Origin: a candidate division WOR-3 bacterium
GTDB taxonomy: Bacteria > Hydrothermota > Tepidihabitantia > B3-TA06
NCBI GenBank assembly: GCA_016934635.1
Contig: JAFGSK010000071.1
Location: 1,294-65,293 of the forward strand
Length of the DNA stretch: 64,000 bases
Reading direction: 5' to 3'
The translations under genes were made by a program, and so were the position numbers. Positions 3,274 through 60,291 of this stretch are shown here, in pieces. The number at the start of each line of letters is the position of its first letter. Within the stretch, counting starts at the first letter, position 1. The notes under the pieces are model-generated. The model was not told the DNA's origin. It did not search any database and saw only the letters and a list, made by a program, of their open reading frames with translations.

Positions 3274-4743
3274 ATGGATGAGAAAGAACGTATATCTGAG
3301 ATGATTGATACTATCAGGAAGCTGGCACAGGGGGATTATTCTGCACAGGTTAAGCTTACTGGCAAGAACGATGAACTTGATGCTTTGGGTATGGGTTTGA
3401 ATATGATGATTGACGATATTAGATGCAATACCAAGGAGTTGAATGAAGCTCACCGCGCCTCACTTAATATTATGGAGGATTTAGAAAGGGAGAGGAAGGA
3501 ATTACGCGCTTTAACGCAACAACTTCAAGCCGAAATAACCGAGCGTAAACTGGCCGAAAAAAAAGAGAAAGAGTATATAAAAAATCTCAAGTTTTTATAC
3601 GATGCCGCCCTGGAGTTTGTTGAACTGGTACCTTTCAAGGCGCTATTCAAATACATTGGGGAAAAACTTTACCAGTTAATAGGATCGGTCATGGTAATAA
3701 CAGTTTCCTATGACGAAGATACCGGAAAATTTACAGCGCGGAGTGTTTCAGGGGCGAGTAGTAAAACCGAGGTTGTACTTAAATTCTTTAGCAAAAATCC
3801 GGTAGACCTAGAGTTTACAATACCACCTGTGGCTCAAGCTCAGCTGCATAGGGGTAAATTACAGAAGGTTCCGAACATTCTTGAAAAGGTCACCGATGTC
3901 AAAATTTCTGCGGAAATGGAAGCGGAACTGAAAAAAGATGTCGGTCTTGGAAACGTATATACAATGGGCCTTGCAAGAGGAGAAAGTCTGTTCGGATTTG
4001 TAATTGTGTTCATGCATGAAGGTGTCGAATTGATTAATAAAAGTGTTGTGGAGACATTTATCAATCAAGCGTCAATTGCACTGCAACGCGGCAAGATTGA
4101 GAAAGAACTAACCGCATCTCTTACAGAAAAGGAATTGCTTTTAAAGGAGATTCACCACCGGGTAAAAAATAACCTGCAAGTAATATCTTCCCTATTAAAC
4201 CTTCAAGCAAGATACGTAAATGATGAAGTGATGTTGAAGGTTTTTGCAAACAGTCAGAGCCGGATTGATTCTATGGCCCTTATTCACGAAAGGCTGTATA
4301 AATCCAAAGACCTGGCAAGGGTGAATTTTGAAGGTTACTTAAAGAGCCTTGTCCGTTCGCTATTTGAGTCCCACAATATCAGTTCCAGTAATGTTTCGTT
4401 AAAGTTGGATGTAAGTGGTGTTTCGTTGAGTATTGACAAAGCCATTCCTTTGGGGTTGATTATAAATGAATTGATAAGTAACTCGTTTGAGCACGGATTT
4501 CCTGAAGGCAGGAAAGGTGAGATAAGGATCTATTTAAGGAAGGCGGAAGATCGGGTTATGCTGACCGTTGCCGATAACGGCGTTGGTTTTCCTGAGGATC
4601 ATGATTTGAAATCGACGGATTCGTTCGGATTACGATTGATCAATATGCTGGTAGACCAGTTGAAGGGGAAGATAGAGCTTTGCAAGACCGATGGATCGAA
4701 ATTTAATATATCCTTCTCAGCTAGTAATAAGGATAACGACTAA
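3274..4743 (+). CDS. Cytoplasmic sensor histidine kinase, HisKA_2/HWE-type (HAMP-like segment, coiled coil, sensor module, HisKA_2, HATPase_c)
   Basis: [22 protein letters not shown]-box typical of HisKA_2. HATPase_c with DNGVGFP and GLRLI motifs. No TM segments. Confidence 0.85.
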
Positions 4744-10121: not shown

Positions 10122-13100
10122 AGCCAGCATTCTTGTTGTAGAAGATATCTCGGTGACCGCGCTGGATATAAAAAATCGGTTGTTGGAGTACGGATATTCA
10201 GTATGTGGGGTGGTGACTTCCGGAGAGGAAGCTTTGCTGGAAACTGAAAGATTAAGGCCTGATCTGGTACTTATGGATATTATATTACAAGGTAAAATAG
10301 ACGGGGTCGAGGCAGCAGAGAAGATTAAGGAGGAATTAAATATACCTGTTGTTTATCTCACGGCGCACATGGATAATGCCACCCTGGATAGAGCAAGACT
10401 AACCGAGCCGTTTGGTTATATCGTTAAACCATTTGAGACCAGGGAGATGGTTTCTACTTTGGAACTGGCGCTTTATAGACATAAGATTGAGCGGGCATTA
10501 AAGGAATCTGAGGAGCGTTACCGAAGCCTCCATTCCAACGTCCCGGTAGGCGTATTTCGTTCCACACCTTCGGGGGAGGTTCTTTCAGCTAATCCGGCCA
10601 TGGTAAGGATGATGGGCTATGATTCGGAAGATGAATACAAAACCGTCTCGATTCCTGACTTGTATCTTTATCCGCAGCAACGTGATAGGTTTGTCAAAAG
10701 GTTGAAAGATGATGGTGCGATTACTGAGTTTGAGGTTCAGCTTAGAAGAAAGAACCAGACCGTTTTCTGGGCGTCCCTGACCGCAAAGGCTGTTTCCGAT
10801 AACGAGGGAAAGATAGTACATTACGACGGTATCCTGGAAGACATTTCCGAACGCAAACAACGTGAGTTGCGTGGACAGATCAGGACTCAGCTTCTAGACA
10901 AGCTGCGAGGGGCAGAAACAATCCAGGGGTGTTTGCAGTTAGGTTGCGAGGCGGTACGAGACGCGGGTTTGTTCAAACGTGCGGTATTTACAACAAAGAA
11001 CGAGAAGGGCGAGACAACCAACGCCGGCTATGTTGGTGTGGATCGACAGATCGTTGAGGAGTTGAGGAAAAAACCGCCTGCAACACGTGAGATGTATGCC
11101 CGGATGTTGAAAGAAGATTTCAAGATAAGCCATTCCTACTTTTTACCGGTAGAGGCGGGTTTGGATATCTCCCAGACCGGTAGGTACGTTCTTCAAGACG
11201 TCTCCTCAGGGGAAGGCCCAGATGCATGGCAGCGGGGAGACGAGTTGCTTGTTCCCATGTTTTCCATGAGTGGTTTAGTGGAAAGCTGGCTCTCTGTGGA
11301 TACGCCCGTGGATGGGAAAAGACCTGACGAAGCAACAATTAATTACCTGGAGGATATCGTAGACATCGTCGCTCGTCAGATCAGAGAGATTAAAAACATC
11401 ACTGCGTTGCGAGAATCCGAAGAACGATACCGGAGTTTAACAGAAAGAGCCAGTGCCGGGGTATATATTTTCGGGCCTCAGGACCGATTTATTTTTGCAA
11501 ATCCCGCAATGGAAAAAATTACCGGTTATTCGCGTAAAGAACTGATTCATATGAATCCTTGGGACATAGTAGTTCCAGAAGACAAAGAAGGCGTACTGAA
11601 AGATCGAAGCCAGGCAAGAGTCAAAGGGGAGGAACTTGAGAGTTCTTATCGGATGCGGGTTATACGAAAGAATGGGGAGGAGGCAACACTCGAGATAAAA
11701 GCTACCCCGATTACGTATGAAGGAAAGCCTGCTCAGCTCGGACACTGTATCGATATAACAGAGAGTATCAAGAACGAGAAAAAGATCGAACATCTCAATT
11801 CTGTTCTCAGAGCCATACGGAATGTCAACCAATTGATCAGTCACGAGAGAGTGCCGGAGAAATTACTCGAAGGGATTTGCAGCAAGCTCGTAGAGACTCG
11901 TAGCTTCTACAGCGCTTGGGTCGTTCTTGTGGATGATTCCGGCAAAGTGGCGTTCATTGCCGAAGCGGGACTCAAGGACAAATTTGCGCCGATTTTAAAG
12001 CCGCTCAAACAAGGAAGACTTACGGATTGCGGTCTCAAGGCCCTGGAATGTGATGATATAATAGTAATCGATGATCCGGCAAACCTATGTCGAGATTGCC
12101 ATATTCTATCCGGAGAGATTGAATCGGGCATGATGTATACCAGATTGAAGTATGCAGAAAAGATCTTCGGTGTATTAGCCGTATCCTTATCTTCCGAACT
12201 CAGCCGTGAAACCGAGGAACAGGAGTTGTTCTGTGAAGTAGGAGGAGATATCGCGTTTGCACTGTACAGCATCGAGGCAGATGAGAAACGCAGGCAGGCG
12301 GAAGAGGCGCTGGAAAGGGAACACCGCGCTTTCAAGATAATCGCCGAAGCTTCAGTCCAGGCAAAGGATATTGCTGATTTATGTAAAAGGGTACTTGAAG
12401 GATTAGTAAAAGCTTTAGTTTTTGACGTGGGAACCTTCAGATTGTACGATGCGGATCACAAATTACTCAAGTTGTGGGCTTCTTTTGGCTTGAGTGAAGA
12501 AGAGATAAAGGATGCATCTGGGGCTCAACCGTTGAACGATCCCCGTTACGTTGCAGCTTTAACGGCACGCACTTCAGAACCAATAATCGCTCCTGATATC
12601 TACAGGACAGAAAGACTGCAACCCTTTATATCTAGACTAGAAAAATTCGAAGAGCGCTCCCTTATTTCCTGGCCTATCCTTGACGGACGGCAAGGCTTGC
12701 TCGGTGTATTACAACTCTGGTCCAAGAAAGAAGTAGATATCTCTGAAGGTGATAGGACATTTTTTGAAAGAGTGGCCGGGATGTTTGCCACTGTTTTGGA
12801 ACGCAAACGTACAGAGGAGGAACTTGATCGTCAGCACCAAAAAATAGAAGCATTGTTTGATAATGTCGATGTGCTGCTCTGGTCTATGCGAGAAGGAGAA
12901 GATGGGGAACTCTATTACGAACAGGTCAATTCTGCTTTTGCAGCTGTTGAAGGTTACTCCCCTGATTATTATAATGAGAAGACCATCTCTGAATTACATC
13001 CTCGTGAACAATGCAATGGTATCATGAATACTTATGCCTGGGTTAAGAATGACGGGATGCACGTTAATGATGTTCATTATAAGGGTAGACACTTTGTTAT

Positions 13101-15927
13101 GCGGTTCTTTCCCTTAAAAGATTTTGACGGCAGGATACGTGGATTCATCGGTTCAGGTATCGATATAACCGACCGTAAACGTGCCGAAGAAGGTATTAAA
13201 TCCCGTCTATTCTATGAAGAGAGTGTATCACACTGCTCTCAAATATTGGTAGAGATGGTGGATTTGGGTGAAGCACTTCAGCAGGTGACAGACGAGATGC
13301 TTTCGGTAGGAAAGGCCAGTCGTGCTTTTATATTCAAAAATCTTGACGGTCCGCAGGATGTTATATTCAGTCGTCTGATTAACGAGGCCGTTGCCGATGG
13401 TGTAGAGCCTCAGATTACGGATACCAGGTTTCAACACCTTGTTTTGCAAGAGGCGTCACAGGAGCTTTTCCAGAAACTTTCTTCCGGAAGACCTTATGGA
13501 GGATCTGTTAAGGAATTACCTTCAGAGGATAGAACGGCTCTTTTTTCACCTGAAACCCGTTCTGTTTTAATACTACCGATTCTTATAGAAGATAAATTCT
13601 GGGGATTTATTGGTTTTGAGGATCAGGTGAAAGAACGCAAGTGGACCCAGGAAGATATTCAACTCTTACGTACCCTAGGATCGCTGATTGGCTCTACGAT
13701 AGAAAGAAGGCGAGCAGAGGAGGGGTTACGTGAATCAGAGGAACGCTATCGGGCGTTTACCGAGGAAGCCCTGGTCGGCGTTTATATTTATCGTGAAAGA
13801 CGATTCCTTTTCGTAAACCGGGCCATGGAAGAAATCACCGGGTACTCCCGTGAAGAACTCCTCGCTATGGATACCGGGAAGCTGGTAATTGCCGAAGATC
13901 AAGCTATGTTAACGGCCAGATCCGAGGCGAGGGAAAGAGGCGAGGAGGTTCCTTCACAGTACAGTATGAGAATTGAAAGGAAGAACGGCCAGATAGCCGT
14001 TCTTGAGGTAAGAACCCGCCAGATAGTTTTTGCCGGACAAAAGGCTTATCTGGGCAACTGCGTGGATATTACCGAGATTCGGAGGGTCCAGGAGGCGTTA
14101 GAGAAATCAGAGGAGCGTTATCGGGTACTTACAGAGGAAGCTATGGTCGGTATTTATCTGACCGTGGGCAAGAATTTCGTTTTTCTTAATCCTGCGATGG
14201 AGAAGATAACCGGCTATACTCGTAATGAATTACTCAAGATAGATATGCATTCCATAGTTGTTTCGGAAGATGTAGAGATGATAACCGAAAGAAAAAAACA
14301 GCGAAAACCCGGACAGCCGGATCAATACACAATGCGCATAAAACGAAAGACCGGAGAGATTGCTACGTTGGAAGTCAGGGTTCGTCCTATTCCTTATCAG
14401 GATAAAGCGGCTTTCCTAGGTAACTGTGTTGACATTACCGAGATAATAAATAATAGGAAACAGATAGAACAGGCGAAAAGGGCCTGGGAGAGTACGTTTG
14501 ATTCTATCTCTGATCTCGTGATGATCCTGGATACTGAATATCGCATTATCCGGGCTAATCGTGCCGTAAAGGAGTATACCGGTATCGATTTCAACGATCT
14601 TTTAGGAAGAAATTATCTGGACGTATACAATTTGAACGAAGAAGATAAAGGCATGAAAGAAATACTAGGCAGAAAAGCCAAGCTTCCCGAACACTTCGAG
14701 ATCAAAGACTCGGTACGGGGCAGGATGTTTTCGGTATCGGTTTCTCCGTTGATCGATCCAGTAGGTGAGATAATAGCCACGGTTCACGTAGCGCGTGACA
14801 TCAGCGATATGCGGATGATGGAAGAGGCCTTGGCAGAATCTGAGGCGCAATTCAGGGGTTTGGCGGAGAGTGCAATGGATATTATATTCAGCGTGGAACT
14901 CGACGGAATGATCAGCTACGTCAATCCCAGCGTTGAGGAGATCCTGGGTGTCAATCCGGCGGTATTCATAGGAAGTAACCTCGGGAGTATGAAGGACTCG
15001 AGGCTTTTTACGGCTGAGGTTCGTAAAGTACTTAGCCGAAATCTTTCCTCAAATCTTGAAGAAAAAGATATACCGTTTTTCGAGATAGAGACCGAAGACG
15101 TGAAAGGGCGCAAGCATGTCATAGAGGTGTCTGCACGTAGATTATTTCATCGTATAGTAGGTATCGCACGCGACGTTACAGAACGGAATCTTATGCAACA
15201 GCAGTTGATCAAGGCTTCCAAACTGGCCTCGATCGGAGTCCTCGCTGCTGGGATAGCTCATCAGGTCAATAATCCGCTTGCTATACTTCTCGTACACTCT
15301 ACACTTCTTCGAACTATCTTTACAGATAGGGAGGAAATACCGTTGGAAGTAAAAGAAGAGGTATCAGAATATCTCGATACGATGGAGGAGCAGGTAGAAC
15401 GAACTCGTCGGGTAGTTTCAGGTCTTTTGGAGTTTACTCAACCTGAACGATCCGAACCGAAGCCTACTGACGTTAATCCAATCGTAAATCAAGCTGCAAA
15501 GTGGCTTTCTCAACGTTACTCTCTGGAGGAGTTGACGCTTGAGCTTTTTCTGGATAAAGCCTTGCCCCGAGCATTTCTCGATAAGGTAGCGTTGGAGCAG
15601 GTAATTATGAACGTTATCGAAAATGCATACGATGCCATGGAAGGCTCAGGCAAACTCTCAATCGAGACCATGCTTGTAAATCAGAGTACGGTTAGTATCC
15701 GGATCAGCGATACCGGCCCAGGTGTTCCTTCCGAGATTCGAGATGAGATTTTTGAACCTCTTTATACAACAAAGTCCGGCAAAAAGGGAACAGGATTAGG
15801 CTTGTCTCTTGCCTCAATGCTTTTAGAGCGTTTCGGAGGACGTATTTATCTTGCAGACACCAAAAACGAAGGTGCGAGTTTTGTAATAGAAGTTCCAGTA
15901 TACCAGGATAAGGTTGATGAATCTTAA
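10114..15927 (+). CDS. Giant multi-sensor hybrid histidine kinase: N-terminal REC, multiple PAS/GAF modules, classic HisKA + HATPase_c
   Basis: REC (LVLMDIILQ, IVKPF). At least six PAS-like and three GAF-like modules. H-box IAHQVNNPLAIL (HisKA). HATPase_c with DTGPGVP and GTGLGLSL. Start overlaps the upstream stop by 8 nt (ATGTCTAA). Confidence 0.85.
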   Translation: MSKASILVVEDISVTALDIKNRLLEYGYSVCGVVTSGEEALLETERLRPDLVLMDIILQGKIDGVEAAEKIKEELNIPVVYLTAHMDNATLDRARLTEPFGYIVKPFETREMVSTLELALYRHKIERALKESEERYRSLHSNVPVGVFRSTPSGEVLSANPAMVRMMGYDSEDEYKTVSIPDLYLYPQQRDRFVKRLKDDGAITEFEVQLRRKNQTVFWASLTAKAVSDNEGKIVHYDGILEDISERKQRELRGQIRTQLLDKLRGAETIQGCLQLGCEAVRDAGLFKRAVFTTKNEKGETTNAGYVGVDRQIVEELRKKPPATREMYARMLKEDFKISHSYFLPVEAGLDISQTGRYVLQDVSSGEGPDAWQRGDELLVPMFSMSGLVESWLSVDTPVDGKRPDEATINYLEDIVDIVARQIREIKNITALRESEERYRSLTERASAGVYIFGPQDRFIFANPAMEKITGYSRKELIHMNPWDIVVPEDKEGVLKDRSQARVKGEELESSYRMRVIRKNGEEATLEIKATPITYEGKPAQLGHCIDITESIKNEKKIEHLNSVLRAIRNVNQLISHERVPEKLLEGICSKLVETRSFYSAWVVLVDDSGKVAFIAEAGLKDKFAPILKPLKQGRLTDCGLKALECDDIIVIDDPANLCRDCHILSGEIESGMMYTRLKYAEKIFGVLAVSLSSELSRETEEQELFCEVGGDIAFALYSIEADEKRRQAEEALEREHRAFKIIAEASVQAKDIADLCKRVLEGLVKALVFDVGTFRLYDADHKLLKLWASFGLSEEEIKDASGAQPLNDPRYVAALTARTSEPIIAPDIYRTERLQPFISRLEKFEERSLISWPILDGRQGLLGVLQLWSKKEVDISEGDRTFFERVAGMFATVLERKRTEEELDRQHQKIEALFDNVDVLLWSMREGEDGELYYEQVNSAFAAVEGYSPDYYNEKTISELHPREQCNGIMNTYAWVKNDGMHVNDVHYKGRHFVMRFFPLKDFDGRIRGFIGSGIDITDRKRAEEGIKSRLFYEESVSHCSQILVEMVDLGEALQQVTDEMLSVGKASRAFIFKNLDGPQDVIFSRLINEAVADGVEPQITDTRFQHLVLQEASQELFQKLSSGRPYGGSVKELPSEDRTALFSPETRSVLILPILIEDKFWGFIGFEDQVKERKWTQEDIQLLRTLGSLIGSTIERRRAEEGLRESEERYRAFTEEALVGVYIYRERRFLFVNRAMEEITGYSREELLAMDTGKLVIAEDQAMLTARSEARERGEEVPSQYSMRIERKNGQIAVLEVRTRQIVFAGQKAYLGNCVDITEIRRVQEALEKSEERYRVLTEEAMVGIYLTVGKNFVFLNPAMEKITGYTRNELLKIDMHSIVVSEDVEMITERKKQRKPGQPDQYTMRIKRKTGEIATLEVRVRPIPYQDKAAFLGNCVDITEIINNRKQIEQAKRAWESTFDSISDLVMILDTEYRIIRANRAVKEYTGIDFNDLLGRNYLDVYNLNEEDKGMKEILGRKAKLPEHFEIKDSVRGRMFSVSVSPLIDPVGEIIATVHVARDISDMRMMEEALAESEAQFRGLAESAMDIIFSVELDGMISYVNPSVEEILGVNPAVFIGSNLGSMKDSRLFTAEVRKVLSRNLSSNLEEKDIPFFEIETEDVKGRKHVIEVSARRLFHRIVGIARDVTERNLMQQQLIKASKLASIGVLAAGIAHQVNNPLAILLVHSTLLRTIFTDREEIPLEVKEEVSEYLDTMEEQVERTRRVVSGLLEFTQPERSEPKPTDVNPIVNQAAKWLSQRYSLEELTLELFLDKALPRAFLDKVALEQVIMNVIENAYDAMEGSGKLSIETMLVNQSTVSIRISDTGPGVPSEIRDEIFEPLYTTKSGKKGTGLGLSLASMLLERFGGRIYLADTKNEGASFVIEVPVYQDKVDES

Positions 15928-19300: not shown

Positions 19301-19499
19301 TCAGCGGTTAGTTCTCCATCCTTGACATCACCGATCCTGTGACTATTATTATCCTCAATGTACGGCAATAAGGCGGTTGCATTCGCTACTGAACCAGGGG
19401 ATGCCTCCAGAAAAGACTCCAGACATGAATCGGACGCAGGTTTTTTTCGGGTTAACGGTCTATATAATGAGAAAGAAATTCCTTCGATCGGAGGTTTTA

Positions 19500-22358
19500 A
19501 TGTGGTCTAAGATGATTAGGGCTGCCATTGTGGGGTTGATACTTGCCGTGCCTGCGTCTGCGCAGTATTTCTACGGCAAGAACAAGGTGCAGCGGGAGGT
19601 TGAAGCAACCTATACCTACGAGACCGAGCATTGTACCATCTACATAGAAGAGGGCGGAGAGCCTCTTGCTAGGTTTGCTGCAGAGGCGGCAGAGGAGGCC
19701 TATAAGCAGCATGCCCAGGACTTCGGGTTCGAGATTCCTTTCAAGATTCCGGTCATCATCTATAAATCGCAGCCTGATTTTGCCGCAACCAACATTATAC
19801 TTGAACCTATCGAGGAATCGATAGGCGGCTTTGCAGAGATTTTCAAGAACCGCGCGGTAATTCCTTTTACCGGATCCTACGAGGATCTCAGGCACGTTAT
19901 CTTCCACGAACTGGTGCATATTTTCCAGTACGAGCTATACTACTCTTTGACTATGTCCAACCTTTTCTCCATCATACCCGGTTTTACACCGCCTCTGTGG
20001 ATAATGGAGGGCTGTGCAGAATTTTCGTCATCCCACGGAGGCGCGGACGAAGACGCCTTCATGCGCGATCTACTCCTGACCAACAATATCATTCCCCTGG
20101 AAGAGCTGGAGTATTGGCAGGGTTATATCGTTTACCGCCAGGGTGAGTCGGTATTCATGTTCATCGAGGATCGCTACGGTCGTGAAAAGGCCTTTGAACT
20201 CATGCACGCCATCAAGTTGAGGGGGAGCATGGACGGTGCGTTCGAGAAGGTTTTCGGGATGAGTGTCGAGGAGTTCGGCAAGGACTGGCTGAACTGGCTG
20301 CGCAAGAAGTATCTTCCCGAGATAGAAAAACTGGACAACCGCAAGATCCAGGCCAGGCTGCTAACAGACCATGAAAAGGACTTTTCGTACTACAACGGTA
20401 GTGTGGCCCTCTCGCCATCAGGTGCCAAGATAGCCTATGCTACCACCAAGGGAGACTATATCACGGTCAACGTGATCAGCGGGTTCGACGGCAAGCCTTT
20501 AAAGAAGCTGCTCAAGGCAGGTCGCTCGGCAACCTTTGAGAGGTTACCGCTTCTGCGCCGGACCCTTGCCTGGTCCGAAGATGAGACCTATCTTGCAGTA
20601 CTAGGATTTTCCCGCAACCAGCCGGTTCTTTTGTGGGTAAACTACTCCACAGGCAAGACCGAGAAAAGGTATCGGCTGAAGGTTGATGATGCATATGCAC
20701 CTGTCATATCACCTGACGGTAATCGCGTGGTTTACGTGGGTATCAAGGACGGCCAAAGCGATCTTTATTCGCTTGACCTGGGGTCGGGAAACGTTGAACG
20801 TTTAACCTACGACCTTTACGAGGAGCAGGACCCTTCTTTTAACGAAGGTTACGTGCTTTACGTGTGCGATAAGCCTGATCAAGACAGCGTATGGCGCGTA
20901 GGCAGCTACGCCGTATGGCAGCTATCAGCGTCAGGAAGGACCAAGCGCGTCTCACCGAGGTTCTCTGAACTTTCCTGCCCATATCGTATGGAAGATGAGA
21001 TTGTATTCATAGGTTCCGGATACAATCTTTACTCCTATGATCCGGAGGATTCCACCCTTATTCAGCTTACCGACTGGTTCGAGAAGATAGAGGAGTTTTC
21101 GCCTGCTTCAAGCGGGAAGGCTGCGATGATTATTTACACCAACTCGGGTTACGACGTGGCAATGCTTAACGGTACCCTCGAAGGTCTTACACCTGCCCAG
21201 GACAGCCTGGAGATAGCCCATGCCGATCTTTTCTCCTATGAGCCGGAAGAGGTGACCATAGAGGACCTTGAACCCTACAAGCCAGCCTTTTCGGCGGATT
21301 ACATCTACGGGTCAGGGGCTTACTCCTCCCTGTACGGGGCAACCGGCAATATCAGCCTGGCTATCAGCGATATGCTGGGAGATCACCGCATCTACATAGA
21401 CGCCAATCTCTACGGGGATATACTCTATTCGGATATAGTCGTATCCTACTGGTTCCTTAAACGCAGGGTAGATTATGCGGTTGGCGGTTTTCAACTTGGC
21501 GATTATTATCTGTATTTAACCTCGGATTCGTCGTTTTTGTACATCGAGCGTGCCCGGCGAGGATTGAGTACCCTGGTTTCAATGCCCTGGAGTAAGTTTT
21601 TCAGACTGGAAACCGGCCTTGACGGGATGGCGGTAACTCACCATGAGTATTACGACGGATACATTGACGAAACAGGCAACATAGTATTTGAGCATGATAC
21701 GATATACACCCAGCCTTTATTCCAAGCCAACGCCTGGCTTGTGTTCGACAATGCGATATGGAATTACTATACCCCGATGAACGGATTGCGGCTGAGGTTG
21801 GGTGGGTACAGTTCCTTTCTTTCTTCTACCCAATACCAGACCGTGATGACCGACCTCAGGGGCTATCTACCGATCACACGCAGAGCCTCGATTGCCCTTC
21901 GTACCTTTGGGGCTGCAAGTTTCGGTCAAGACAGGGAATACTTCTATCTGGCCGGAGGCGGATTCGGGGAGTACCGCGATTTCTTCTTCTTCGGCGGGCC
22001 GTACGAGGTTCGGGGCTACCAGTACTCCTCCTACGATGCGTTCGTCGGTTCAAAGGTTGCTTTTGCAAACCTTGAGCTCCGGGTTCCGTTCGTGGATCAG
22101 CTGAAGATGTCTTTTCCCCTGCCATTGAACCTGGGCGGGATTCGAGGGGTTGTTTTTACCGATGCCGGGTTCGTATGGGACGAAGAACTGCCTCGACTTT
22201 GGCAGGGCGGCAGACTCGAAGACCTCAAGGCCGGGTACGGGGTAGGAATTCGCTGGGTCTTCGGTTACTTTATGCTCAAGTTTGATTTTGCCAGGCCGTA
22301 TCAAACCGATGAGGAGAAACCATGGAAGTTTCATTTCCGGATAGGTGCGGATTTCTAA
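19500..22358 (+). CDS. Outer-membrane Omp85-family beta-barrel protein with N-terminal HEXXH metallopeptidase-like domain and PD40/TolB-like beta-propeller repeats
   Basis: RBS GGAGG 9 nt upstream of ATG 19500. Signal peptide MWSKMIRAAIVGLILAVPASAQ. HELVH zinc-binding motif. PD40-like repeats (ISPDGNRVVYV, SDLYSLDLGSG). C-terminal Omp85 barrel signatures: the VRGY loop-6 motif (GGPYEVRGYQY), GYGVGIRWVFGYFMLKFDFARP, terminal F. Confidence 0.6.
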   Translation: MWSKMIRAAIVGLILAVPASAQYFYGKNKVQREVEATYTYETEHCTIYIEEGGEPLARFAAEAAEEAYKQHAQDFGFEIPFKIPVIIYKSQPDFAATNIILEPIEESIGGFAEIFKNRAVIPFTGSYEDLRHVIFHELVHIFQYELYYSLTMSNLFSIIPGFTPPLWIMEGCAEFSSSHGGADEDAFMRDLLLTNNIIPLEELEYWQGYIVYRQGESVFMFIEDRYGREKAFELMHAIKLRGSMDGAFEKVFGMSVEEFGKDWLNWLRKKYLPEIEKLDNRKIQARLLTDHEKDFSYYNGSVALSPSGAKIAYATTKGDYITVNVISGFDGKPLKKLLKAGRSATFERLPLLRRTLAWSEDETYLAVLGFSRNQPVLLWVNYSTGKTEKRYRLKVDDAYAPVISPDGNRVVYVGIKDGQSDLYSLDLGSGNVERLTYDLYEEQDPSFNEGYVLYVCDKPDQDSVWRVGSYAVWQLSASGRTKRVSPRFSELSCPYRMEDEIVFIGSGYNLYSYDPEDSTLIQLTDWFEKIEEFSPASSGKAAMIIYTNSGYDVAMLNGTLEGLTPAQDSLEIAHADLFSYEPEEVTIEDLEPYKPAFSADYIYGSGAYSSLYGATGNISLAISDMLGDHRIYIDANLYGDILYSDIVVSYWFLKRRVDYAVGGFQLGDYYLYLTSDSSFLYIERARRGLSTLVSMPWSKFFRLETGLDGMAVTHHEYYDGYIDETGNIVFEHDTIYTQPLFQANAWLVFDNAIWNYYTPMNGLRLRLGGYSSFLSSTQYQTVMTDLRGYLPITRRASIALRTFGAASFGQDREYFYLAGGGFGEYRDFFFFGGPYEVRGYQYSSYDAFVGSKVAFANLELRVPFVDQLKMSFPLPLNLGGIRGVVFTDAGFVWDEELPRLWQGGRLEDLKAGYGVGIRWVFGYFMLKFDFARPYQTDEEKPWKFHFRIGADF

Positions 22359-23848: not shown

Positions 23849-26800
23849 TTGAGAAAAATAACAGCCCTTCTTTTTGCTTCATGGTCTTTAGCTTTGAGTC
23901 AGGTCAGCGTTACTTCAGCTATACCTGGCGAGGTAAAGATCAAGATTAGGGCGCCTGAGAGTGTAGACGCTTTAACCTCTCACAGCAAGTTAGATCTCGA
24001 GAATCTTTATCCAGGGACTAAGCTGGTCGCAGATACATCAGGTACAGTTTTACCTCAGTATGTAATTTATATTGGCGTACCTCCTCATGGAGAGGTTCGA
24101 GTTGATTTCCAGTTAGGTTCATCGCGTAATTTAAAAGGAATTCAGCTTGATGACCTGCACTGGCCTGCAGTCCTGGAGAAACCTGGTGACGAACCCAGGA
24201 TTAGTCACTGGGTGAGTAATGCATCCAGAGTTGACTACACCGTAAGCCGTTGGCGGGATTACCGGGTTGTAGTCATTAACGCAAGACCGATCTTCTACGA
24301 TACGACGACAAACACCCTAACATTATACAAGGAGATTGCAGTTGAGGTTTCTTTCAGCGAACCGCCTTACCAGACAGGTGAACCTATAACCAACAGCAAT
24401 CTTGAGTACATATATTCCTCATCGATAACGAATTACGAACAGTGTAAAGACTGGACAATACCTTTTGGAGAGGTAGCATCCAATCCTTTTAAAGGCACGG
24501 ATAATTGGATCAAAGTCAGGATTCCAGAGGACGGGGTTTACCGTATCAGCTTTCGGGATTTAAAGAAACTGGATATAGAGCCTGACAAGATAGACCCTAA
24601 GACCTTACGGTTAGTTTACGCGGGAGAACGCCTGATAGATGAGAATCTCCCGGATACATTGAAGGAATTACCGATCTATGTTCACGGAGAGATGGACGGA
24701 AGCTTTGATCGTGAGGATTACATCGTTTTCTTTGCCCGTGGAGCTAACCATTGGGATTTTACCCAGCGAAGGTTCGAAACGAACCCTTATGTTAATGAAA
24801 ACGTGTACTGGCTAACCTGGGGCGGGGCAAAGGGTATACGGAATCCTACACGTGCCGCATATCCATTGGTCAGGGAAGCGGAGCATTCAGCTCCTGGTAT
24901 ACTTCACTTTGAGGAGGATCACGAGTGTCCTGGTCGTGCAGGCTTCCTTTGGTTATGGGAAGAGATTACGAAGACAAATGTGGATGTTATACGAAAGGAT
25001 ACCTTTATACTTGATCTTTCAGGCGTAATAGCAGTGGATACCTTTACTATCAAGGCTTATACTACGACCAGACAGGCAGGTTTTCGCGTACTGGTAGACG
25101 AAGACACTCTTTACTCCATACCAGTTGCAGATGACAGCAGGTACCCACCTGATTACGTTTCTGTTTCTCCAGGATTTACTATTAAAGATGAGCTTCCTTT
25201 AGTTATCGAAGTATTCGGTCCTTCGGAGCAGAATCTATATCCAGATTGGATACGGATGGTTGCAACGCGGGAATTGTCATTTAAACATAACCCTTTCTGG
25301 GTAGAACTGGAACCTAATAAGGTATACGAGTTCGGTGGTGTCAGATCCGGTTCATATCTTTATGATTATAGCGATCCTGCAAATCCGGTTATCCTGACTG
25401 ATTGGCAGCTTAAAAACAGAAAGCTCGTGATGAGTACTCGAACAAAGGAGATTATACCGGTTTGGGTCGCTGCCGGGCAGGGACTTCTTATACCAGACCT
25501 TGAAATTGCAGAACCGGGGAAGCTTTGGGATGAGGATTGGAATGTCGATTACGTGATTCTTTCAACCAGCGAGAATTTCGAGGCTGCCAGTGAATTGAGC
25601 GAATACCGGTCGCAGAACCTCCAGATTCCAGGGGTAAGCACCCCAAGGGTAAAGGCTGTAGATTTAGCGGATATTGTTCGAGATTTCGGCTACGGATTAG
25701 CCGAACCACAGGCAATTCGTCATTTCCTTTCCTACGTATACAATAAAAGCGCGGGTAGAACCCTTTATGTACTGATCATGGGAGACGGATCATACGATTA
25801 CAAGAACAACCTGGGTTTTACGGGTAGGCCGGAGTATTTTCCAATTCATACTCAGGATACGATACTCGATCCTAACGTGTATACGGTGATTGCGGCAACG
25901 AAGGAAGCATGGTTCGTAGATTTTGACGATGACGGTGAACATAACCCTGAGATGTGCATTGCCAGGATAACTGCAAGAGGCCCGCGTGAAGCCTACGACG
26001 TTCTAGAGAAGATTAAGGCATACGAACAAGTTCCTGCCGAGGCATGGCAGAGTCGTGTCATCTTGCTTTCCGACGACTATTACGAAGGAAGTCCCTCCAT
26101 AAGAGATCCAATCTCCAATCATATACCTGCTAATGAGGAGTTAGCCAAAGATTACCTTTATCCTGAATTCGATCCTGTCAAGGTTTACCTGTCCGACTAT
26201 CCACTTATCGGTGGGAGAAAAGATGACGCCAAGAAAGCCTTAATCGATGCACTGAACAGAGGAGCGTTACTGTGGCAGTTCTTTGGACACGGTAATGGAA
26301 GCCAGCTTGCTCATGAAGAGGTTTTCTTGTACTCCGATGCCTCAGGATTGCAGAATGGAAGCAAGTTACCTCTGGCCTTGTTCTGTTCGTGTGGGGTAGG
26401 ACGCTTCGAGGATACACGGTGGGAATGCGTGGCCGAGGAGCTTTTACGAAATGAAAACGGAGGCGTGATTGCATCGATTGCCGCTACCAAAGGCACCGGG
26501 CCAGATGCCAATCAATATATGACCGATTCTCTTTTCAGTAAATACAGGGGGTTTAAAAACTCAAACCTAGGTGATCTCTTTTTCTCACTGGTTCCGGGCA
26601 ATTCAATTACTATCCTTTACGTTTTATTCGGTGACCCTGGGATGCGATTCTCGTTTCCTACCGCTCTGGAGGTTAGTTCGGCATCGGATTCTTTTGTTAC
26701 CGGCGACACTGCAGTGGTATTATTTAACGCTCCCGCAGAAGAGGGTGGATGGTTTGCATCTGCATACGGAAGTTGGGTTAAGAAAAAAGAGGTTGTCTAC

Positions 26801-27691
26801 GGTATTGGTTATGGTTTTAAAGGAGATTTACTTTATCGAGCGCGGGGCGAGCTCTCAGGTGAAGAGCAGATATTGAGGTTTATAGTGCCTCAAGGGGTTG
26901 CAGAAGGGGATTCTGCATACATACACTTGATGTGTGCAGACGATGATTCTATCTATACATATCGGATTGAACCGATCAAGGTCGTCACAGGTTCTGTTAC
27001 GTCGAGTGATTACCAAGGACCGACTGCAGGATTCTTGGTTAACGGTAAACCTGTTCTTGATGGGGATACCGTTCTTCCGTCTTTCACCCTGACAATCGAA
27101 CTCCAAGATCAGTCAGGGATAAACCTGGCAGGTAAAACAGGACTTCGAGGACCTGCCATAGGTCGCAAGTTCAGTCTAGAGATCAACGAATCAGATCCAG
27201 TCGACCTTTCTCCTTACTTTGAGTATGAGGTTTCTTCAGATGAACTGGCTACCAAAGGTGTTGCGAATCTGCCGATTTCGTTTGCACAGGAGGACAATAT
27301 CCTTACATTATACGCCGTAGATAACATGAGAAATACCTCCCAGTACGATCTCAACCTTTATACCGCCTTTGAACGCAATCTTGAAGTAGAGACGCCTTTA
27401 GTTTATCCCAATCCGGTTTCATCTACTGCAGAGTTTACGTTTGAGCTTAATGCAGCAGCAGATGTATCGGTTCTGATATTTTCGATAAGCGGTAGACTTG
27501 TTAGACGTCTGCCTGTCCTGTCTTATCCAGAAGGCTTTAGTTCCTATGCCTGGGATGGATTGGATGCCAGCGGTAGACCTCTGCCCAATGGCGTTTATAT
27601 CTATCGTTTAACGGCAGAAACAGGTCCTGAAGATGCCTGGTTGCCCAATGCACGCACCTCGGTAAACGAGAAGTTTATCGTGGTGCATTAG
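23849..27691 (+). CDS. Peptidase C25 (gingipain/PorU-like) family cysteine peptidase with C-terminal T9SS sorting domain
   Basis: TTG start with RBS AAGGGGGA. Signal peptide. Segment LLWQFFGHGNGSQ...LALFCSCGVGRF is compatible with the C25 His/Cys dyad region. C-terminus YPNPVSSTAEFTFEL...VSVLIFSISGRLVRRL...GVYIYRL matches the Por_Secre_tail CTD. Length 1280 aa is similar to PorU. Confidence 0.6.
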   Translation: MRKITALLFASWSLALSQVSVTSAIPGEVKIKIRAPESVDALTSHSKLDLENLYPGTKLVADTSGTVLPQYVIYIGVPPHGEVRVDFQLGSSRNLKGIQLDDLHWPAVLEKPGDEPRISHWVSNASRVDYTVSRWRDYRVVVINARPIFYDTTTNTLTLYKEIAVEVSFSEPPYQTGEPITNSNLEYIYSSSITNYEQCKDWTIPFGEVASNPFKGTDNWIKVRIPEDGVYRISFRDLKKLDIEPDKIDPKTLRLVYAGERLIDENLPDTLKELPIYVHGEMDGSFDREDYIVFFARGANHWDFTQRRFETNPYVNENVYWLTWGGAKGIRNPTRAAYPLVREAEHSAPGILHFEEDHECPGRAGFLWLWEEITKTNVDVIRKDTFILDLSGVIAVDTFTIKAYTTTRQAGFRVLVDEDTLYSIPVADDSRYPPDYVSVSPGFTIKDELPLVIEVFGPSEQNLYPDWIRMVATRELSFKHNPFWVELEPNKVYEFGGVRSGSYLYDYSDPANPVILTDWQLKNRKLVMSTRTKEIIPVWVAAGQGLLIPDLEIAEPGKLWDEDWNVDYVILSTSENFEAASELSEYRSQNLQIPGVSTPRVKAVDLADIVRDFGYGLAEPQAIRHFLSYVYNKSAGRTLYVLIMGDGSYDYKNNLGFTGRPEYFPIHTQDTILDPNVYTVIAATKEAWFVDFDDDGEHNPEMCIARITARGPREAYDVLEKIKAYEQVPAEAWQSRVILLSDDYYEGSPSIRDPISNHIPANEELAKDYLYPEFDPVKVYLSDYPLIGGRKDDAKKALIDALNRGALLWQFFGHGNGSQLAHEEVFLYSDASGLQNGSKLPLALFCSCGVGRFEDTRWECVAEELLRNENGGVIASIAATKGTGPDANQYMTDSLFSKYRGFKNSNLGDLFFSLVPGNSITILYVLFGDPGMRFSFPTALEVSSASDSFVTGDTAVVLFNAPAEEGGWFASAYGSWVKKKEVVYGIGYGFKGDLLYRARGELSGEEQILRFIVPQGVAEGDSAYIHLMCADDDSIYTYRIEPIKVVTGSVTSSDYQGPTAGFLVNGKPVLDGDTVLPSFTLTIELQDQSGINLAGKTGLRGPAIGRKFSLEINESDPVDLSPYFEYEVSSDELATKGVANLPISFAQEDNILTLYAVDNMRNTSQYDLNLYTAFERNLEVETPLVYPNPVSSTAEFTFELNAAADVSVLIFSISGRLVRRLPVLSYPEGFSSYAWDGLDASGRPLPNGVYIYRLTAETGPEDAWLPNARTSVNEKFIVVH

Positions 27692-47097: not shown

Positions 47098-48864
47098 ATG
47101 AAGAAATGGGTAAGTGTATTGCTTGCCGTAGGGATAATAGTAGCATTCGGTCAGGTATGGCAAATTGAAGTAGTGGATTCGAACGCTAATTCGGGAATGT
47201 TCGCTTCCCTCGGTATCGATTCCTATAATCTTCCTCACATAGCATACCTTTACGCTTTTCCAGTCCCTACTTCGGTCTCCTCAACCATGATGCCTCAGAT
47301 AAACGGCGAACTGAGATATGCACACTACAACGGCACGAATTGGATTACCGAAGTAGTCGACGACAACAACGGCGACGGTGAGGTCGGAGCTTTTTGTGGG
47401 CTGGCCATTAGCCCTAAAACAGATCGCCCTCACGTTGCCTATTTCGACGCCTACAACGGCGATCTTAAGTGGGCAAGATTGAACGCGAACGGCTCATGGA
47501 CAATCGGTATACCTGATCCCAATCCCACCGATGTAGTGGGAGTTGCTTCCAGTATAGCGGTTGACGAGGCTGATAATGCCCACATAGCTTACTGGAATGC
47601 TGATTCAATGATTCTACTTTACACCACTCCTGACGGCGGGGGCGGCTGGCTTATAGATACGGTTGATTATTCCGATCCTGTGATGTCCATGTTTACAAGA
47701 ACGTCCATTACCTTGGATGATATGGGTAACCCTCATATAGCGTATTGCGTGGCCGATACCGTTACACAAACAGTCTTTTTGAAGCACGCCAAGCTAATTA
47801 CCGGAACCTGGATTATCGATACCGTGGAATACCGGGTTGGCGATATCGTGGGTTTCTGGCCTGATATCGAGATCGGTCCCACGTCTAACAACCTGCCCTA
47901 CATAAGCTACTTCGATGACGCAAACGGTTACATGAAGTACGCCCGGTACAATTCTATTTCGGACAGCTGGGCGCTCGGTGTAGTTGAAAATACCCCTGGT
48001 ACAGGTTCATTCGGTTCGCAGGTTCTTGGTTCTTCTCATGCTAGCTATTACGATGAGAACAACGGCCACCTGAAGTACGCCTATACCGACGATTATCTGG
48101 GATGGAACTCAGAAATTGTGGATAATTCCGGTGATGTCGGTATGTTTTCTTCAATAGATTTAAGTAATAAAGGTGACATGGTCTTTCCTCACATTGCCTA
48201 CTTCGACAGCGACAACGGTCATCTAAAGTACGCCACCAAGATTCTCAAGGATATGTTACCGGTATCCATAGACAATCCACCTCGACATGTTTATCCTGAT
48301 TCTACCTATCCTCTCGAGGCGACGATTCGTAACCAGGGTAATTCTGTTTGCGCCTGTTCGGTGTCATGCAGGATAAGGTTGGGAACGGATGATGTATACA
48401 TAGGTAAGGCGTACACCGGGGCTTTAAACGTTGACGAGGGAATACCTGTTATCTTCGATCCTCCAACATGGACGGCAATCAGCGGTTACAATAACGTCTG
48501 GTATCACATTCAGGTAGAAACGGAACTTTCGGACGATTCAGTACCTGATAACGACGTCCTAATAGATTCGATATTCGCTTCCGATACATTCACGAGTGAA
48601 GTCGTTGAAGGGATCGATATCGCCAGTTTCAATCTCAAGGTTTCCTCGGACCAGGTAAAGCTGACCTTACCTGTAGCGACCGATGCTGGACTATACTTAG
48701 TTGATGTTTCCGGTCGTTGCTGTCTCACCCTTCACGAGGGTTTTCTAGAAGCCGGTATCTATGACTTTACGGTTGATACAAATGCGTTATCTTCGGGCGT
48801 TTACTTCGTAAGATTCAGGTCACCAGCGACTAACGTGACGAGGAAGACTATCTTGGTAAGGTAA
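47098..48864 (+). CDS. Secreted repeat protein, paralog 2 (same architecture; T9SS CTD)
   Basis: MKKWVSVLLAVGIIVAFGQV. About 80% identical to paralog 3 over the N-terminal two-thirds. C-terminus GVYFVRFRSPATNVTRKTILVR. Confidence 0.65.
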   Translation: MKKWVSVLLAVGIIVAFGQVWQIEVVDSNANSGMFASLGIDSYNLPHIAYLYAFPVPTSVSSTMMPQINGELRYAHYNGTNWITEVVDDNNGDGEVGAFCGLAISPKTDRPHVAYFDAYNGDLKWARLNANGSWTIGIPDPNPTDVVGVASSIAVDEADNAHIAYWNADSMILLYTTPDGGGGWLIDTVDYSDPVMSMFTRTSITLDDMGNPHIAYCVADTVTQTVFLKHAKLITGTWIIDTVEYRVGDIVGFWPDIEIGPTSNNLPYISYFDDANGYMKYARYNSISDSWALGVVENTPGTGSFGSQVLGSSHASYYDENNGHLKYAYTDDYLGWNSEIVDNSGDVGMFSSIDLSNKGDMVFPHIAYFDSDNGHLKYATKILKDMLPVSIDNPPRHVYPDSTYPLEATIRNQGNSVCACSVSCRIRLGTDDVYIGKAYTGALNVDEGIPVIFDPPTWTAISGYNNVWYHIQVETELSDDSVPDNDVLIDSIFASDTFTSEVVEGIDIASFNLKVSSDQVKLTLPVATDAGLYLVDVSGRCCLTLHEGFLEAGIYDFTVDTNALSSGVYFVRFRSPATNVTRKTILVR

Positions 48865-58968: not shown

Positions 58969-59252
58969 AAAAAAATTTCGGCCGTGCGACACCTTCGTTC
59001 AGGTCCGCGAGGGCTGTCAGAACAAACAGGCTCCAACCAGGCACTCTCGGCACCGTAATCACGTCCGTGTACCGTTGCTTCCTTCCGGACCTGGCGGGGT
59101 TGGCGGTGTGCTGCGAGCCAAGACCCAATCTTCATTGCTTGCTTCCTCTTGCAGTGATCCTCACTTTCCTGATCTCACGGTGTCCTTCAGCCTCGCGTAT
59201 GGCGGGTTTCGAGTCCAGGAGACCGCCAACCTCCCGCTTAGCACGGCCGACA
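58969..59252 (-). ncRNA. ffs: Signal recognition particle RNA, long (Bacillus-type, Alu-domain-containing) form
   Basis: The minus strand reads 5'-GUCGGCCGUGCUAAGCGGGAGGUUGGCGGU... (an Alu-domain 5' end like B. subtilis scRNA). It contains the invariant helix-8 motif CCAGGUCCGGAAGGAAGCA (plus-strand GCTTCCTTCCGGACCTGG at about 59077-59094). The 3' segment GCACGGCCGA pairs with the 5' end, followed by a U7 terminator. Conserved position immediately upstream of dnaX. Confidence 0.85.
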
Positions 59253-59256
59253 TTCA

Positions 59257-60291
59257 CTATTCAGCTAGGTCTTTTTGTTCAAAGAATACACCTAATTCAT
59301 CAAGGTTAGGGCTTGTTTGGATAACCCCGAATATCTCAAGACGATCAGAAAGGTCCTGTAGATCATAAGGGTTAATGGCAAGCGGCAGGAAGTATTCCGG
59401 AATCTTGATACGAGTGGTTACCTGTGGATCATCGATTCCTAATACACTTCCCAAAAAAAGCCCTAGAGAGTCTGAAGCCGCTAGGTCGATTTCCCGGACT
59501 ACTTGTTTCATAGCAAGATGCATTCTTATCACGCCAGTTTTGTTTTCAGCATAGTACTTGGAGGTCGTAAATATCCCTGCAGAATGATATGGTGAACCGA
59601 TCCAGTTAGGCAGAAACCCGCCTCCGGCAAAAGGTTCGCTGATGTGTGTTCTTGCCTGGGTGAAGCAGGGTTCAATTGCCAAAACCAGGTCCATCTCACC
59701 AGACTCAAGGGCGGAAAGTAGTTCCTGAGGAGGATATACCTGGATAATTACATCGGCAGGATCGATGCCCAGTGCGGCAAGGGCGACCTTAAAAGAAAAC
59801 TCAGTACCGGAGGTTACACCTATTTTTTTGTTCTCAAGATCGGTTATCTTGTTGAACTTGAGACCCTGTTTCGGGAAAAGGCCTTCTACCGGTCGACTTT
59901 CCCTGAACTCAACCGAGAGCAAACATCGCAGAGTGTCGGTTGGGTGTTCGCTCATCCAAAGTAGTACATCAGGCCAAGGCAGTACGGCAAATTGGACTTC
60001 CCCCTGGATCAGGGCTTCGATTGCTTTGCTTGGATTTAATTCTTCTTCTACTGTTACCTCGAGCTTGACCTCATTGCGTGTAAAAACATCACCTTTTTGG
60101 ATGGTGTCAGCCGGGGTTCGAGCCCATGAATCGTATGATTTTGCGAAGTATACAGGCAGTGAAGAAACAGAATGCTCGACCAGTACCTTTACCTCCGTAG
60201 GCTTGGACATTTTGACCAGGGGGATGATAATGATTGTTGCAAGGACTCCTGCCAGGACGATAATTACTGCAGTCAGGATGTGTTTCTTCAT
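59257..60291 (-). CDS. Periplasmic substrate-binding protein, NMT1/SsuA/TauA-like (ABC transporter)
   Basis: Signal anchor. LENKKIGVTSGTEFSFKVALAALGIDPADVIIQVYPPQELLSALESGEMDLVLAIEP matches the NMT1/SsuA fold pattern. Confidence 0.55.
   Translation of the reverse strand: MKKHILTAVIIVLAGVLATIIIIPLVKMSKPTEVKVLVEHSVSSLPVYFAKSYDSWARTPADTIQKGDVFTRNEVKLEVTVEEELNPSKAIEALIQGEVQFAVLPWPDVLLWMSEHPTDTLRCLLSVEFRESRPVEGLFPKQGLKFNKITDLENKKIGVTSGTEFSFKVALAALGIDPADVIIQVYPPQELLSALESGEMDLVLAIEPCFTQARTHISEPFAGGGFLPNWIGSPYHSAGIFTTSKYYAENKTGVIRMHLAMKQVVREIDLAASDSLGLFLGSVLGIDDPQVTTRIKIPEYFLPLAINPYDLQDLSDRLEIFGVIQTSPNLDELGVFFEQKDLAE

Follow-up and report, generated by a model that had tools for sequence, protein, structure and literature searches.

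The minus strand immediately upstream of dnaX on contig JAFGSK010000071.1 of a candidate division WOR-3 bacterium very probably carries an ffs (scr) gene encoding a bacterial long signal recognition particle (SRP) RNA of about 273 nucleotides (nt), of the type of the Bacillus subtilis small cytoplasmic RNA (scRNA). The whole 64,000-nt stretch of this contig that was analyzed is hereafter called the window, and all coordinates refer to it. Rfam 15 covariance models were run across the entire window at gathering thresholds, and weaker overlapping matches from the same clan were removed. The only Rfam match retained in the 64 kb was that of RF01854 (Bacteria_large_SRP) at 58982..59246 of the minus strand, which aligned with model positions 1–256 of 256 and scored 102.6 bits (gathering score, 60; E = 9.6e-15). 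The segment is not confined to helix 8 and part of helix 5, the approximately 100-nt extent of the small SRP RNA model RF00169, and a conserved full Alu domain is present. An earlier reading made from the sequence alone (the sequence-only reading) had proposed a long-form SRP RNA rather than a 4.5S RNA and suggested RF01854 versus RF00169 as a check. The proposal was confirmed, in that the large model passed its gathering score over the full length and the Alu architecture covaried both within the lineage and across phyla. The length of about 284 nt given in that reading is an upper bound, as the RNA measures 273 nt between the outer bases of helix 1 and 282 nt when the U-tract is added. The G+C content of the RNA is 60%, versus 45.5% in the flanking genes.

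The two ends of the RNA pair with each other as had been claimed, UCGGCCGUGC at the 5′ end and GCACGGCCGA at the 3′ end forming a helix 1 of 10 bp (Table 1). Nine of these 10 pairs are invariant in the seven homologs described below, and the helix was recovered independently by the minimum free energy (MFE) fold of the single sequence and by RNAalifold. Since helix 1 hardly varies within the lineage, it is supported by conservation and not by covariation. The helix 8 sequence that had been called invariant was also present on the minus strand. This 19-nt motif, CCAGGUCCGGAAGGAAGCA, lies at 59076..59094, occurs only once in the window, and was absent from 100 dinucleotide-preserving shuffles even when up to two mismatches were allowed. 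Helix 8 has a tetraloop of the GNRA class (GGAA) as well as the conserved AGG/AGCA symmetric loop, and all its pairs are retained in the seven homologs except for one C.A in the window copy. Downstream of the 3′ end, two A residues are followed by the seven U residues that had been noted there, and the dnaX start codon is found on the same strand 22 nt past this U-tract, in agreement with the position upstream of dnaX given in the sequence-only reading.

Homologs of the window RNA were found next to the dnaX genes of two related metagenome-assembled genomes (MAGs), a WOR-3 MAG (L001) and a Stahlbacteria MAG (L002), in each of which RF01854 matches over its full length immediately upstream of dnaX (114 and 121.7 bits, respectively). 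Further homologs were sought with a pattern based on the segment that spans helices 3 and 4 in this lineage. Five metagenome contigs were recovered, and all five contained a full-length RF01854 match (111.6–124.2 bits). WOR-3/Stahlbacteria-type copies number eight in all, and they lie upstream of dnaX wherever dnaX is in view. Two of the metagenome copies are identical, and the resulting alignment A2 comprised seven distinct sequences including that of the window, which is the most divergent of the lineage (77–80% identity to the others). RNAalifold, which cannot model a pseudoknot, returned from A2 with no prior input a 10-bp helix 1, helix 3, a long helix 5, and helix 8 with its GGAA loop. 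The canonical structure was scored on A2 as helices 1–5 and 8 in the Rfam alignment register plus the loop-loop pseudoknot, 93 pairs altogether. Standard pairs made up 97.2% of the cells, and both-sided changes occurred in 10 of the 93 pairs. None of 500 shuffles matched the observed percentage of paired cells, the double changes, or the covariation score, and controls in which the 3′ partners were slid by 1–3 columns gave only 32–45% paired cells and 1–4 double changes. Within the lineage, the covariation sits in helix 5, and helices 1–4, the pseudoknot, and distal helix 8 are nearly invariant; therefore, the evidence for these latter elements is conservation. RNAalifold also offered an alternative pairing of columns 15–17 with the insertion at columns 263–265. 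This was rejected, since two of its three pairs fail or are weaker in the window copy, whereas canonical helix 2 is preserved there, with A-U in place of G.U.

The Alu 5′ domain was compared across phyla in alignment A4, which contained 12 distinct sequences from WOR-3-type genomes, Bacillales, Clostridia, and one unclassified MAG, the RNAs of all hosts other than the WOR-3 type adjoining dnaX. Excluded from A4 were two RNAs that had spoiled an earlier, broader alignment (A3), namely L008 with an inserted hairpin and L049 with a 171-nt form. In A4, 92.9% of the cells were paired, compared with 42–49% when the partners were slid, and double-sided changes were detected in six pairs spread across helices 2, 3, and 4. 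The loops of helices 3 and 4 form the t1 loop-loop pseudoknot, for which five Watson-Crick pairs were found in the window, and a sixth pair, U-A, is possible. The first t1 pair (26-53) appears in A4 as A-U six times, as G-C five times, and as U-A once, and the other four pairs are invariant. A five-pair t1 pseudoknot has been seen in the crystal structure from B. subtilis (PMC4231752). The sequence-only reading had described the 5′ end as nearly identical to that of the B. subtilis scRNA; the homology was borne out, but not the near-identity, as the 5′ domain is 75–78% identical to those of three Bacillaceae/Bacillales proxies. The excluded L008 RNA (L008:1183-1470) is a 288-nt large SRP RNA in which an extra hairpin of approximately 23 nt lies between helix 3 and helix 4, just past the linker UG.

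Features reported as specific to prokaryotes comprise helix 1, the junction IIIA platform (A12/G62 and A64/U263), the five-pair t1, the L4.1 lobe, the "UGU" linker, and the minor-saddle tandem G.A (PMC4231752). By alignment, the probable counterparts of the four platform bases in the window are A59239, G59188, A59186, and U58991, all of which are invariant in the lineage. Three extra nucleotides (GUC) beside helix 1 could alter the junction. The minor-saddle motif of B. subtilis includes G74/A255 and A75/G254 (PMC4231752), and the tandem GA/GA of the window, as aligned, stands at the same distance from the junction, although the internal loop is 4×3 and not 4×4. The tandem G.A loop is therefore probably the counterpart of the minor-saddle motif, judged from sequence and position. 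The features of the RNA and of its neighborhood are listed in Table 1.

Table 1. Coordinates of the long SRP RNA gene, its structural elements, overlapping open reading frames, and neighboring genes in the window
Feature	Position	Strand	Basis or remark
Long (Alu-domain) SRP RNA gene, very probable, first to last base of helix 1	58978..59250	minus	RF01854 match
Helix 1, 5′ strand, UCGGCCGUGC	59241..59250	minus	pairs with 58978..58987
Helix 1, 3′ strand, GCACGGCCGA	58978..58987	minus	exact complement of the 59241..59250 segment
Alu 5′ domain: helices 2, 3, and 4 with loops	59188..59239	minus	cross-phylum alignment A4
t1 pseudoknot strand, helix 3 loop, GGCGG	59223..59227	minus	complementary to CCGCC
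t1 pseudoknot strand, helix 4 loop, CCGCC	59201..59205	minus	complementary to GGCGG
Linker between helix 3 and helix 4, "UGU" equivalent, UGG in the window	59215..59217 (A2 columns 36–38)	minus	A2
5′-GA-3′ of the tandem G.A/A.G internal loop, proximal helix 5	59175..59176	minus	invariant in A2
Facing 5′-GA-3′ of the same tandem G.A loop	58995..58996	minus	invariant in A2
Helix 8 (S domain) with symmetric and asymmetric loops, predicted Ffh-binding site	59065..59106	minus	motif and pairing
GGAA tetraloop of helix 8	59083..59086	minus	
U7 tract	58969..58975	minus	2 nt past helix 1; possible, probably leaky transcription stop
ORF A, 137 amino acids, spurious, antisense to the whole RNA	58955..59368	plus	
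ORF B, 80 amino acids, spurious, antisense	59067..59309	plus	
ORF C, 88 amino acids, spurious, sense, spanning the U-tract between helix 5 and dnaX, which it enters in a different frame	58862..59128	minus	
dnaX (DNA polymerase III tau/gamma)	57339..58946	minus	Pfam DNA_pol3_delta2, DNAX_ATPase_lid, DNA_pol3_gamma3, DnaX_C
ybaB/ebfC	57046..57342	minus	Pfam YbaB_DNA_bd, 85.2 bits
recR	56431..57039	minus	Pfam RecR_HhH, RecR_ZnF, Toprim_4, RecR_C
NMT1/THI5-like (SsuA-like) binding protein, upstream of the RNA	59257..60291	minus	Pfam NMT1, 45.2 bits

Several observations weigh against the assignment to the long SRP RNAs. The 102.6 bits of the window copy is the lowest score among the full-length large SRP RNAs that were found, and this copy departs from canonical pairing at 24 of the 98 Rfam model pairs; most of these departures are resolved by a lineage-specific register of helix 5. 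In secondary-structure folding, which the sequence-only reading had also put forward as a check, the comparative RNAalifold fold supported helices 1, 3, 5, and 8, whereas the single-sequence MFE fold recovered helix 1 but not the SRP fold, with a z-score of −2.2. The MFE fold is uninformative here because the RNA is 273 nt long and contains a pseudoknot and non-canonical loops. Furthermore, the linker between helices 3 and 4 reads UGG in the window and not "UGU," which was singled out as the best-conserved portion of the Alu core (PMC4231752). This triplet is UGG, UGG, UCU, UGU, UGU, UCU, and UUU in the seven A2 homologs, in which the rest of the 5′ domain is almost invariant. It also deviates in the unclassified MAG L009 (CUU), and Candidatus Scalindua L021 keeps UGU. 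The UGG linker is tolerated by the Rfam model, "UGU" being a conserved motif and not a curated requirement for membership. The B. subtilis linker lacks the U-turn seen in eukaryotes, and the third of its bases bulges out (Kempf et al. 2014, PMC4231752); a relaxed constraint on the linker is therefore plausible in a protein-free Alu domain. A consensus scan found neither a sigma-70-like promoter on the strand of the RNA nor a local hairpin terminator. Finally, no ffh, ftsY, or HU gene was detected among the window ORFs scanned, and the protein partners of the SRP are assumed.

As for expression, the terminator scan was empty because no local hairpin precedes the U-tract; the stem at that position is helix 1, which forms over a long range. 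Relatives have four to six U residues where the window has seven, and the Bacillales copies lack a U-tract at this site. Helix 1 together with the U7 tract would probably act as a leaky or partial stop that still permits dnaX expression. On the other side of the gene, the TAG stop codon of the upstream gene (59257..59259) is only 6 nt from helix 1. The tandem stop TAG-TGA of this NMT1-like gene (window 59251..59259) is found at the same spacing in L001, L002, and L081–L085, and it leaves no intergenic room for a promoter. TAGTGA was considered as a −10 box and rejected, since it is this tandem stop and lies too near helix 1. Given the 6-nt distance, transcription of the SRP RNA would probably start at a promoter within the upstream gene or be shared with that gene, and the transcript would then be trimmed; trimming from longer transcripts is known for other SRP RNAs.

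To place this RNA among its relatives, 60 dnaX loci were scanned with Rfam. A large-type SRP RNA directly upstream of dnaX was found in Bacillales (L052, L076, L078), Clostridia (L026, L079), unclassified MAGs (L008, L009, L016), Selenomonas (L049, the 171-nt form), and Candidatus Scalindua sediminis, a planctomycete (L021). The copies of Ca. Scalindua sediminis (L021:2698-2962) and of one unclassified MAG (L009:2696-2961) are full-length large SRP RNAs scoring 189.5 and 128.1 bits, respectively. In Ruminococcus (L051), a large SRP RNA and dnaX are on opposite strands, with the RNA approximately 1.2 kb upstream, which is not this arrangement. The small type was found directly upstream of dnaX in Smithella and other Desulfobacterota, Nitrospira, Bdellovibrionales, a Planctomycetota MAG, a Verrucomicrobiota MAG, Mitsuokella, and a Bacillota MAG, at a distance of about 40–250 nt in L006, L010, L011, L017, L019, L029, L030, L031, L032, L035, L038, and L039. 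No SRP RNA was detected within 3 kb of dnaX in Cloacimonadota, Ignavibacteriota, Bacteroidota, Fibrobacteria, and Chlorobiaceae. The linkage of ffs to dnaX in many diderm phyla that have the small RNA indicates that the locus is old and independent of the RNA type. Separately, tRNA genes were often seen just upstream of the small SRP RNA-dnaX loci, and no tRNA gene is present in the window. The Selenomonas RNA (L049:2700-2870, 171 nt) matched the large model end to end with 97.3 bits, but its 5′ region does not align with the Alu domains of the other RNAs. Possibly, this diderm Firmicute has a reduced or intermediate form of the RNA. Mitsuokella (L017), a relative of Selenomonas, carries the small type.

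Published summaries confine the long bacterial SRP RNAs to Firmicutes and Thermotogae (PMC4231752, PMC11431127), and in papers up to 2024 these RNAs are still described as restricted to some Firmicutes and a few Thermotogae. A literature search for WOR-3 together with the signal recognition particle retrieved no paper combining both. The long SRP RNA of WOR-3 thus exceeds the published summaries, and the RNA of this lineage is previously undescribed in the literature searched. Nevertheless, WOR-3 is one of several non-Firmicute carriers and not a unique one, and any Rfam-based pipeline would label the gene. The statement in the sequence-only reading that the long form is taxonomically informative accordingly holds weakly, the long form being found beside dnaX in Ca. 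Scalindua and in unclassified MAGs as well.

The B. subtilis scRNA, also termed a "6S-type" SRP RNA, shares with the window RNA helix 1, helices 2–4 with the t1 pseudoknot, a long helix 5, helix 8 with GGAA, the lack of helix 6, a length of about 270 nt, and a gene position directly upstream of dnaX-ybaB-recR; judged by alignment, the platform nucleotides and the tandem G.A loop near the base of helix 5 are probably common to both as well. Against Bacillales proxies for B. subtilis, the window RNA is approximately 55% identical overall and approximately 76% identical in the 5′ domain. The two RNAs differ in several details. The linker is UGG in the window and varies within the lineage, whereas it is UGU in B. 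subtilis. Helix 4 has four Watson-Crick pairs instead of five and a loop longer by 1 nt, and G-C replaces A-U as the first t1 pair, with the possible sixth pair U-A. In the window RNA, helix 1 is set apart from the 3′ strand of helix 5 by three additional nucleotides (GUC), the internal loop with the tandem G.A is 4×3 rather than 4×4, and a U-tract comes directly after helix 1. The host of the window RNA is a diderm with a type IX secretion system (T9SS) rather than a Firmicute. The Escherichia coli 4.5S RNA (RF00169) has in common with it helix 8, the GGAA tetraloop, the symmetric and asymmetric loops, and the role of Ffh scaffold, but is only about 100–115 nt long and lacks helices 1–4 and hence an Alu domain. 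The archaeal 7S SRP RNA (RF01857) likewise has helix 1 and a protein-free Alu domain, but it contains helix 6, the SRP19 site, which is missing from the window RNA. The RNAs of Ca. Scalindua L021 and MAG L009 resemble that of the window in their full-length RF01854 matches, their position directly upstream of dnaX, and their diderm hosts, yet they are only 48% identical to the window copy. According to the literature, Thermotogae are also diderm hosts of a long SRP RNA.

We weighed two other identities for the RNA itself. The segment might hold only a short 4.5S-type SRP RNA, its flanking Alu domain being a chance resemblance. Helix 8, being the best-conserved element, would be expected in any SRP RNA, and many diderm phyla do carry the small type at the same locus; however, the large model matches from position 1 to 256 above its gathering score, helices 1–4 and the pseudoknot are conserved and covarying, and the 5′ domain shares 75–78% identity with the Bacillales copies. 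The 4.5S-only reading was thus refuted by the full-length RF01854 match and by the covariation in A2 and A4, and we regard it as extremely improbable. Likewise, an archaeal-type 7S SRP RNA, acquired for example from an archaeon, has a vanishingly small likelihood. When a short stretch was searched in E-value mode, RF01857 was in fact the best match of the clan (75.9 bits, E ~2e-17) and aligned end to end, but these 75.9 bits fall below the RF01857 gathering score of 96.5. Moreover, helix 6 was not found in the printed RF01857 alignment, in which its block of 40 model positions is aligned with 0 nt, and the gene context ffs-dnaX-ybaB-recR is bacterial. The archaeal assignment was rejected on account of the score below gathering and the missing helix 6. 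Because helix 1 and the Alu domain are present and helix 6 is absent, the RNA is of the bacterial long type.

Three open reading frames (ORFs) overlap the RNA gene at the coordinates given by the sequence-only reading, which had advised against annotating them. With lengths of 80–137 codons, one or more of them might be supposed to be a real protein-coding gene. None of ORFs A, B, and C matched a Pfam family at E ≤ 0.01. When their frames were projected onto six relatives, A and B were interrupted in all six by a 1-nt indel and one or two stop codons, and C met a stop in three of the six. Substitutions at the three codon positions numbered approximately 16–17/23–24/22 for A, 10/15/8 for B, and 10/14/11 for C, so that no excess at the third position is seen, which in B has the fewest substitutions; the variation is explained by base-pair covariation. 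ORF C, moreover, traverses the U-tract and overlaps dnaX out of frame. The relatives show long open frames too, albeit in shifting frames, as expected for a G+C-rich structured RNA with few stop triplets. A real coding gene among the three is therefore very improbable; the ORFs are spurious, and such annotation calls should be dropped. It is also improbable, on the evidence at hand, that this lineage obtained its long SRP RNA by a recent horizontal transfer from Firmicutes instead of by descent. The restriction of the long form to Firmicutes and Thermotogae in the published summaries would favor such a transfer, as would the gene order ffs-dnaX-ybaB-recR, which is that known from Bacillus. However, the WOR-3-type RNAs share only 48–57% identity with every other long SRP RNA recovered and occupy a long branch of their own in a rough distance tree, a 273-nt RNA carrying little phylogenetic signal, and thus give no hint of a recent transfer from Firmicutes. 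In addition, the old ffs-dnaX linkage with the small RNA in many diderm phyla argues against transfer, and the flanking dnaX is closest to those of WOR-3/Stahlbacteria and not to those of Firmicutes. Among GTDB contigs (one genome per species), the nearest relatives of this dnaX were those of the WOR-3 MAG L001 (60% identity) and the Ca. Stahlbacteria MAG L002 (59% identity), with the rest at or below approximately 50%. The only public contig with an identical DnaX, a 27-kb Logan contig (SRR13394437_473200, L086), breaks off within the SRP RNA gene, 153 nt before dnaX.

The neighborhood of the gene and the host were examined as well. The order ffs-dnaX-ybaB-recR in which the gene sits is a widespread one. 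The upstream NMT1-like gene has an ortholog with the same spacing in L001, and a gene for a tetratricopeptide repeat (TPR) protein also precedes the SRP RNA. Elsewhere in the window, 23849..27688 encodes the T9SS sortase PorU (NF033707, 433.9 bits versus a cut-off of 420), which has a Por_Secre_tail of its own. A 588-amino-acid protein (47098..48864) has a weak Por_Secre_tail match of 22.7 bits, with a cut-off of 23. A 993-amino-acid protein (19377..22358) combines Peptidase_MA_2, PD40/TolB-like beta-propeller repeats, and a C-terminal Omp85 barrel, which is an unusual fusion. The presence of PorU, Por_Secre_tail domains, and an Omp85-family outer-membrane protein marks the host as a T9SS-bearing diderm; the sequence-only reading had likewise held that it has a T9SS. 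Two adjacent and very large hybrid sensor kinases of 1792 and 1937 amino acids are encoded at 4743..10121 and 10114..15927, both with a receiver domain at the N terminus and numerous PAS and GAF domains.

In the systems of E. coli and B. subtilis, helix 8 binds Ffh, the tetraloop takes part in FtsY docking, and the GTPases are activated at helix 5. By analogy with the family, the loops of helix 8 in the window RNA would be bound by Ffh to form the SRP, and the GGAA tetraloop would help recruit and dock FtsY while the signal sequence leaves the ribosome. The Ffh-FtsY GTPase pair would then move along helix 5 and be activated there. The protein-free Alu domain may reach the elongation-factor site of the ribosome and slow elongation during membrane targeting, as has been described for an RNA-only Alu domain (Kempf et al. 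2014, PMC4231752). An SRP function of the window RNA would thus follow from family homology together with the conserved fold.

With respect to the history of the locus, the Scalindua and WOR-3 hosts and the occurrence of either RNA type upstream of dnaX suggest that the Alu domain has been lost many times from one conserved locus. A tentative extension of this idea, which we consider possible but doubtful, is that the long RNA is ancestral at the old ffs-dnaX locus and was retained in WOR-3/Stahlbacteria, Scalindua, Firmicutes, and others, that the 4.5S form arose there through repeated Alu loss, and that the Alu domain of the WOR-3 lineage works with an unconstrained "UGU" linker. If the linker were indeed unconstrained, RNA-only elongation arrest could proceed without the "UGU" motif.

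We recommend annotating the region as ffs, a large-type SRP RNA gene. The gene is an ordinary housekeeping gene of an already known family and is mildly notable for its host lineage. Its value for biology is modest: a T9SS-bearing diderm candidate phylum (WOR-3/Stahlbacteria) joins the hosts of the long SRP RNA, with Ca. Scalindua as another, and the natural linker variants of this lineage provide ready material on the role of the motif in protein-free bacterial Alu domains.

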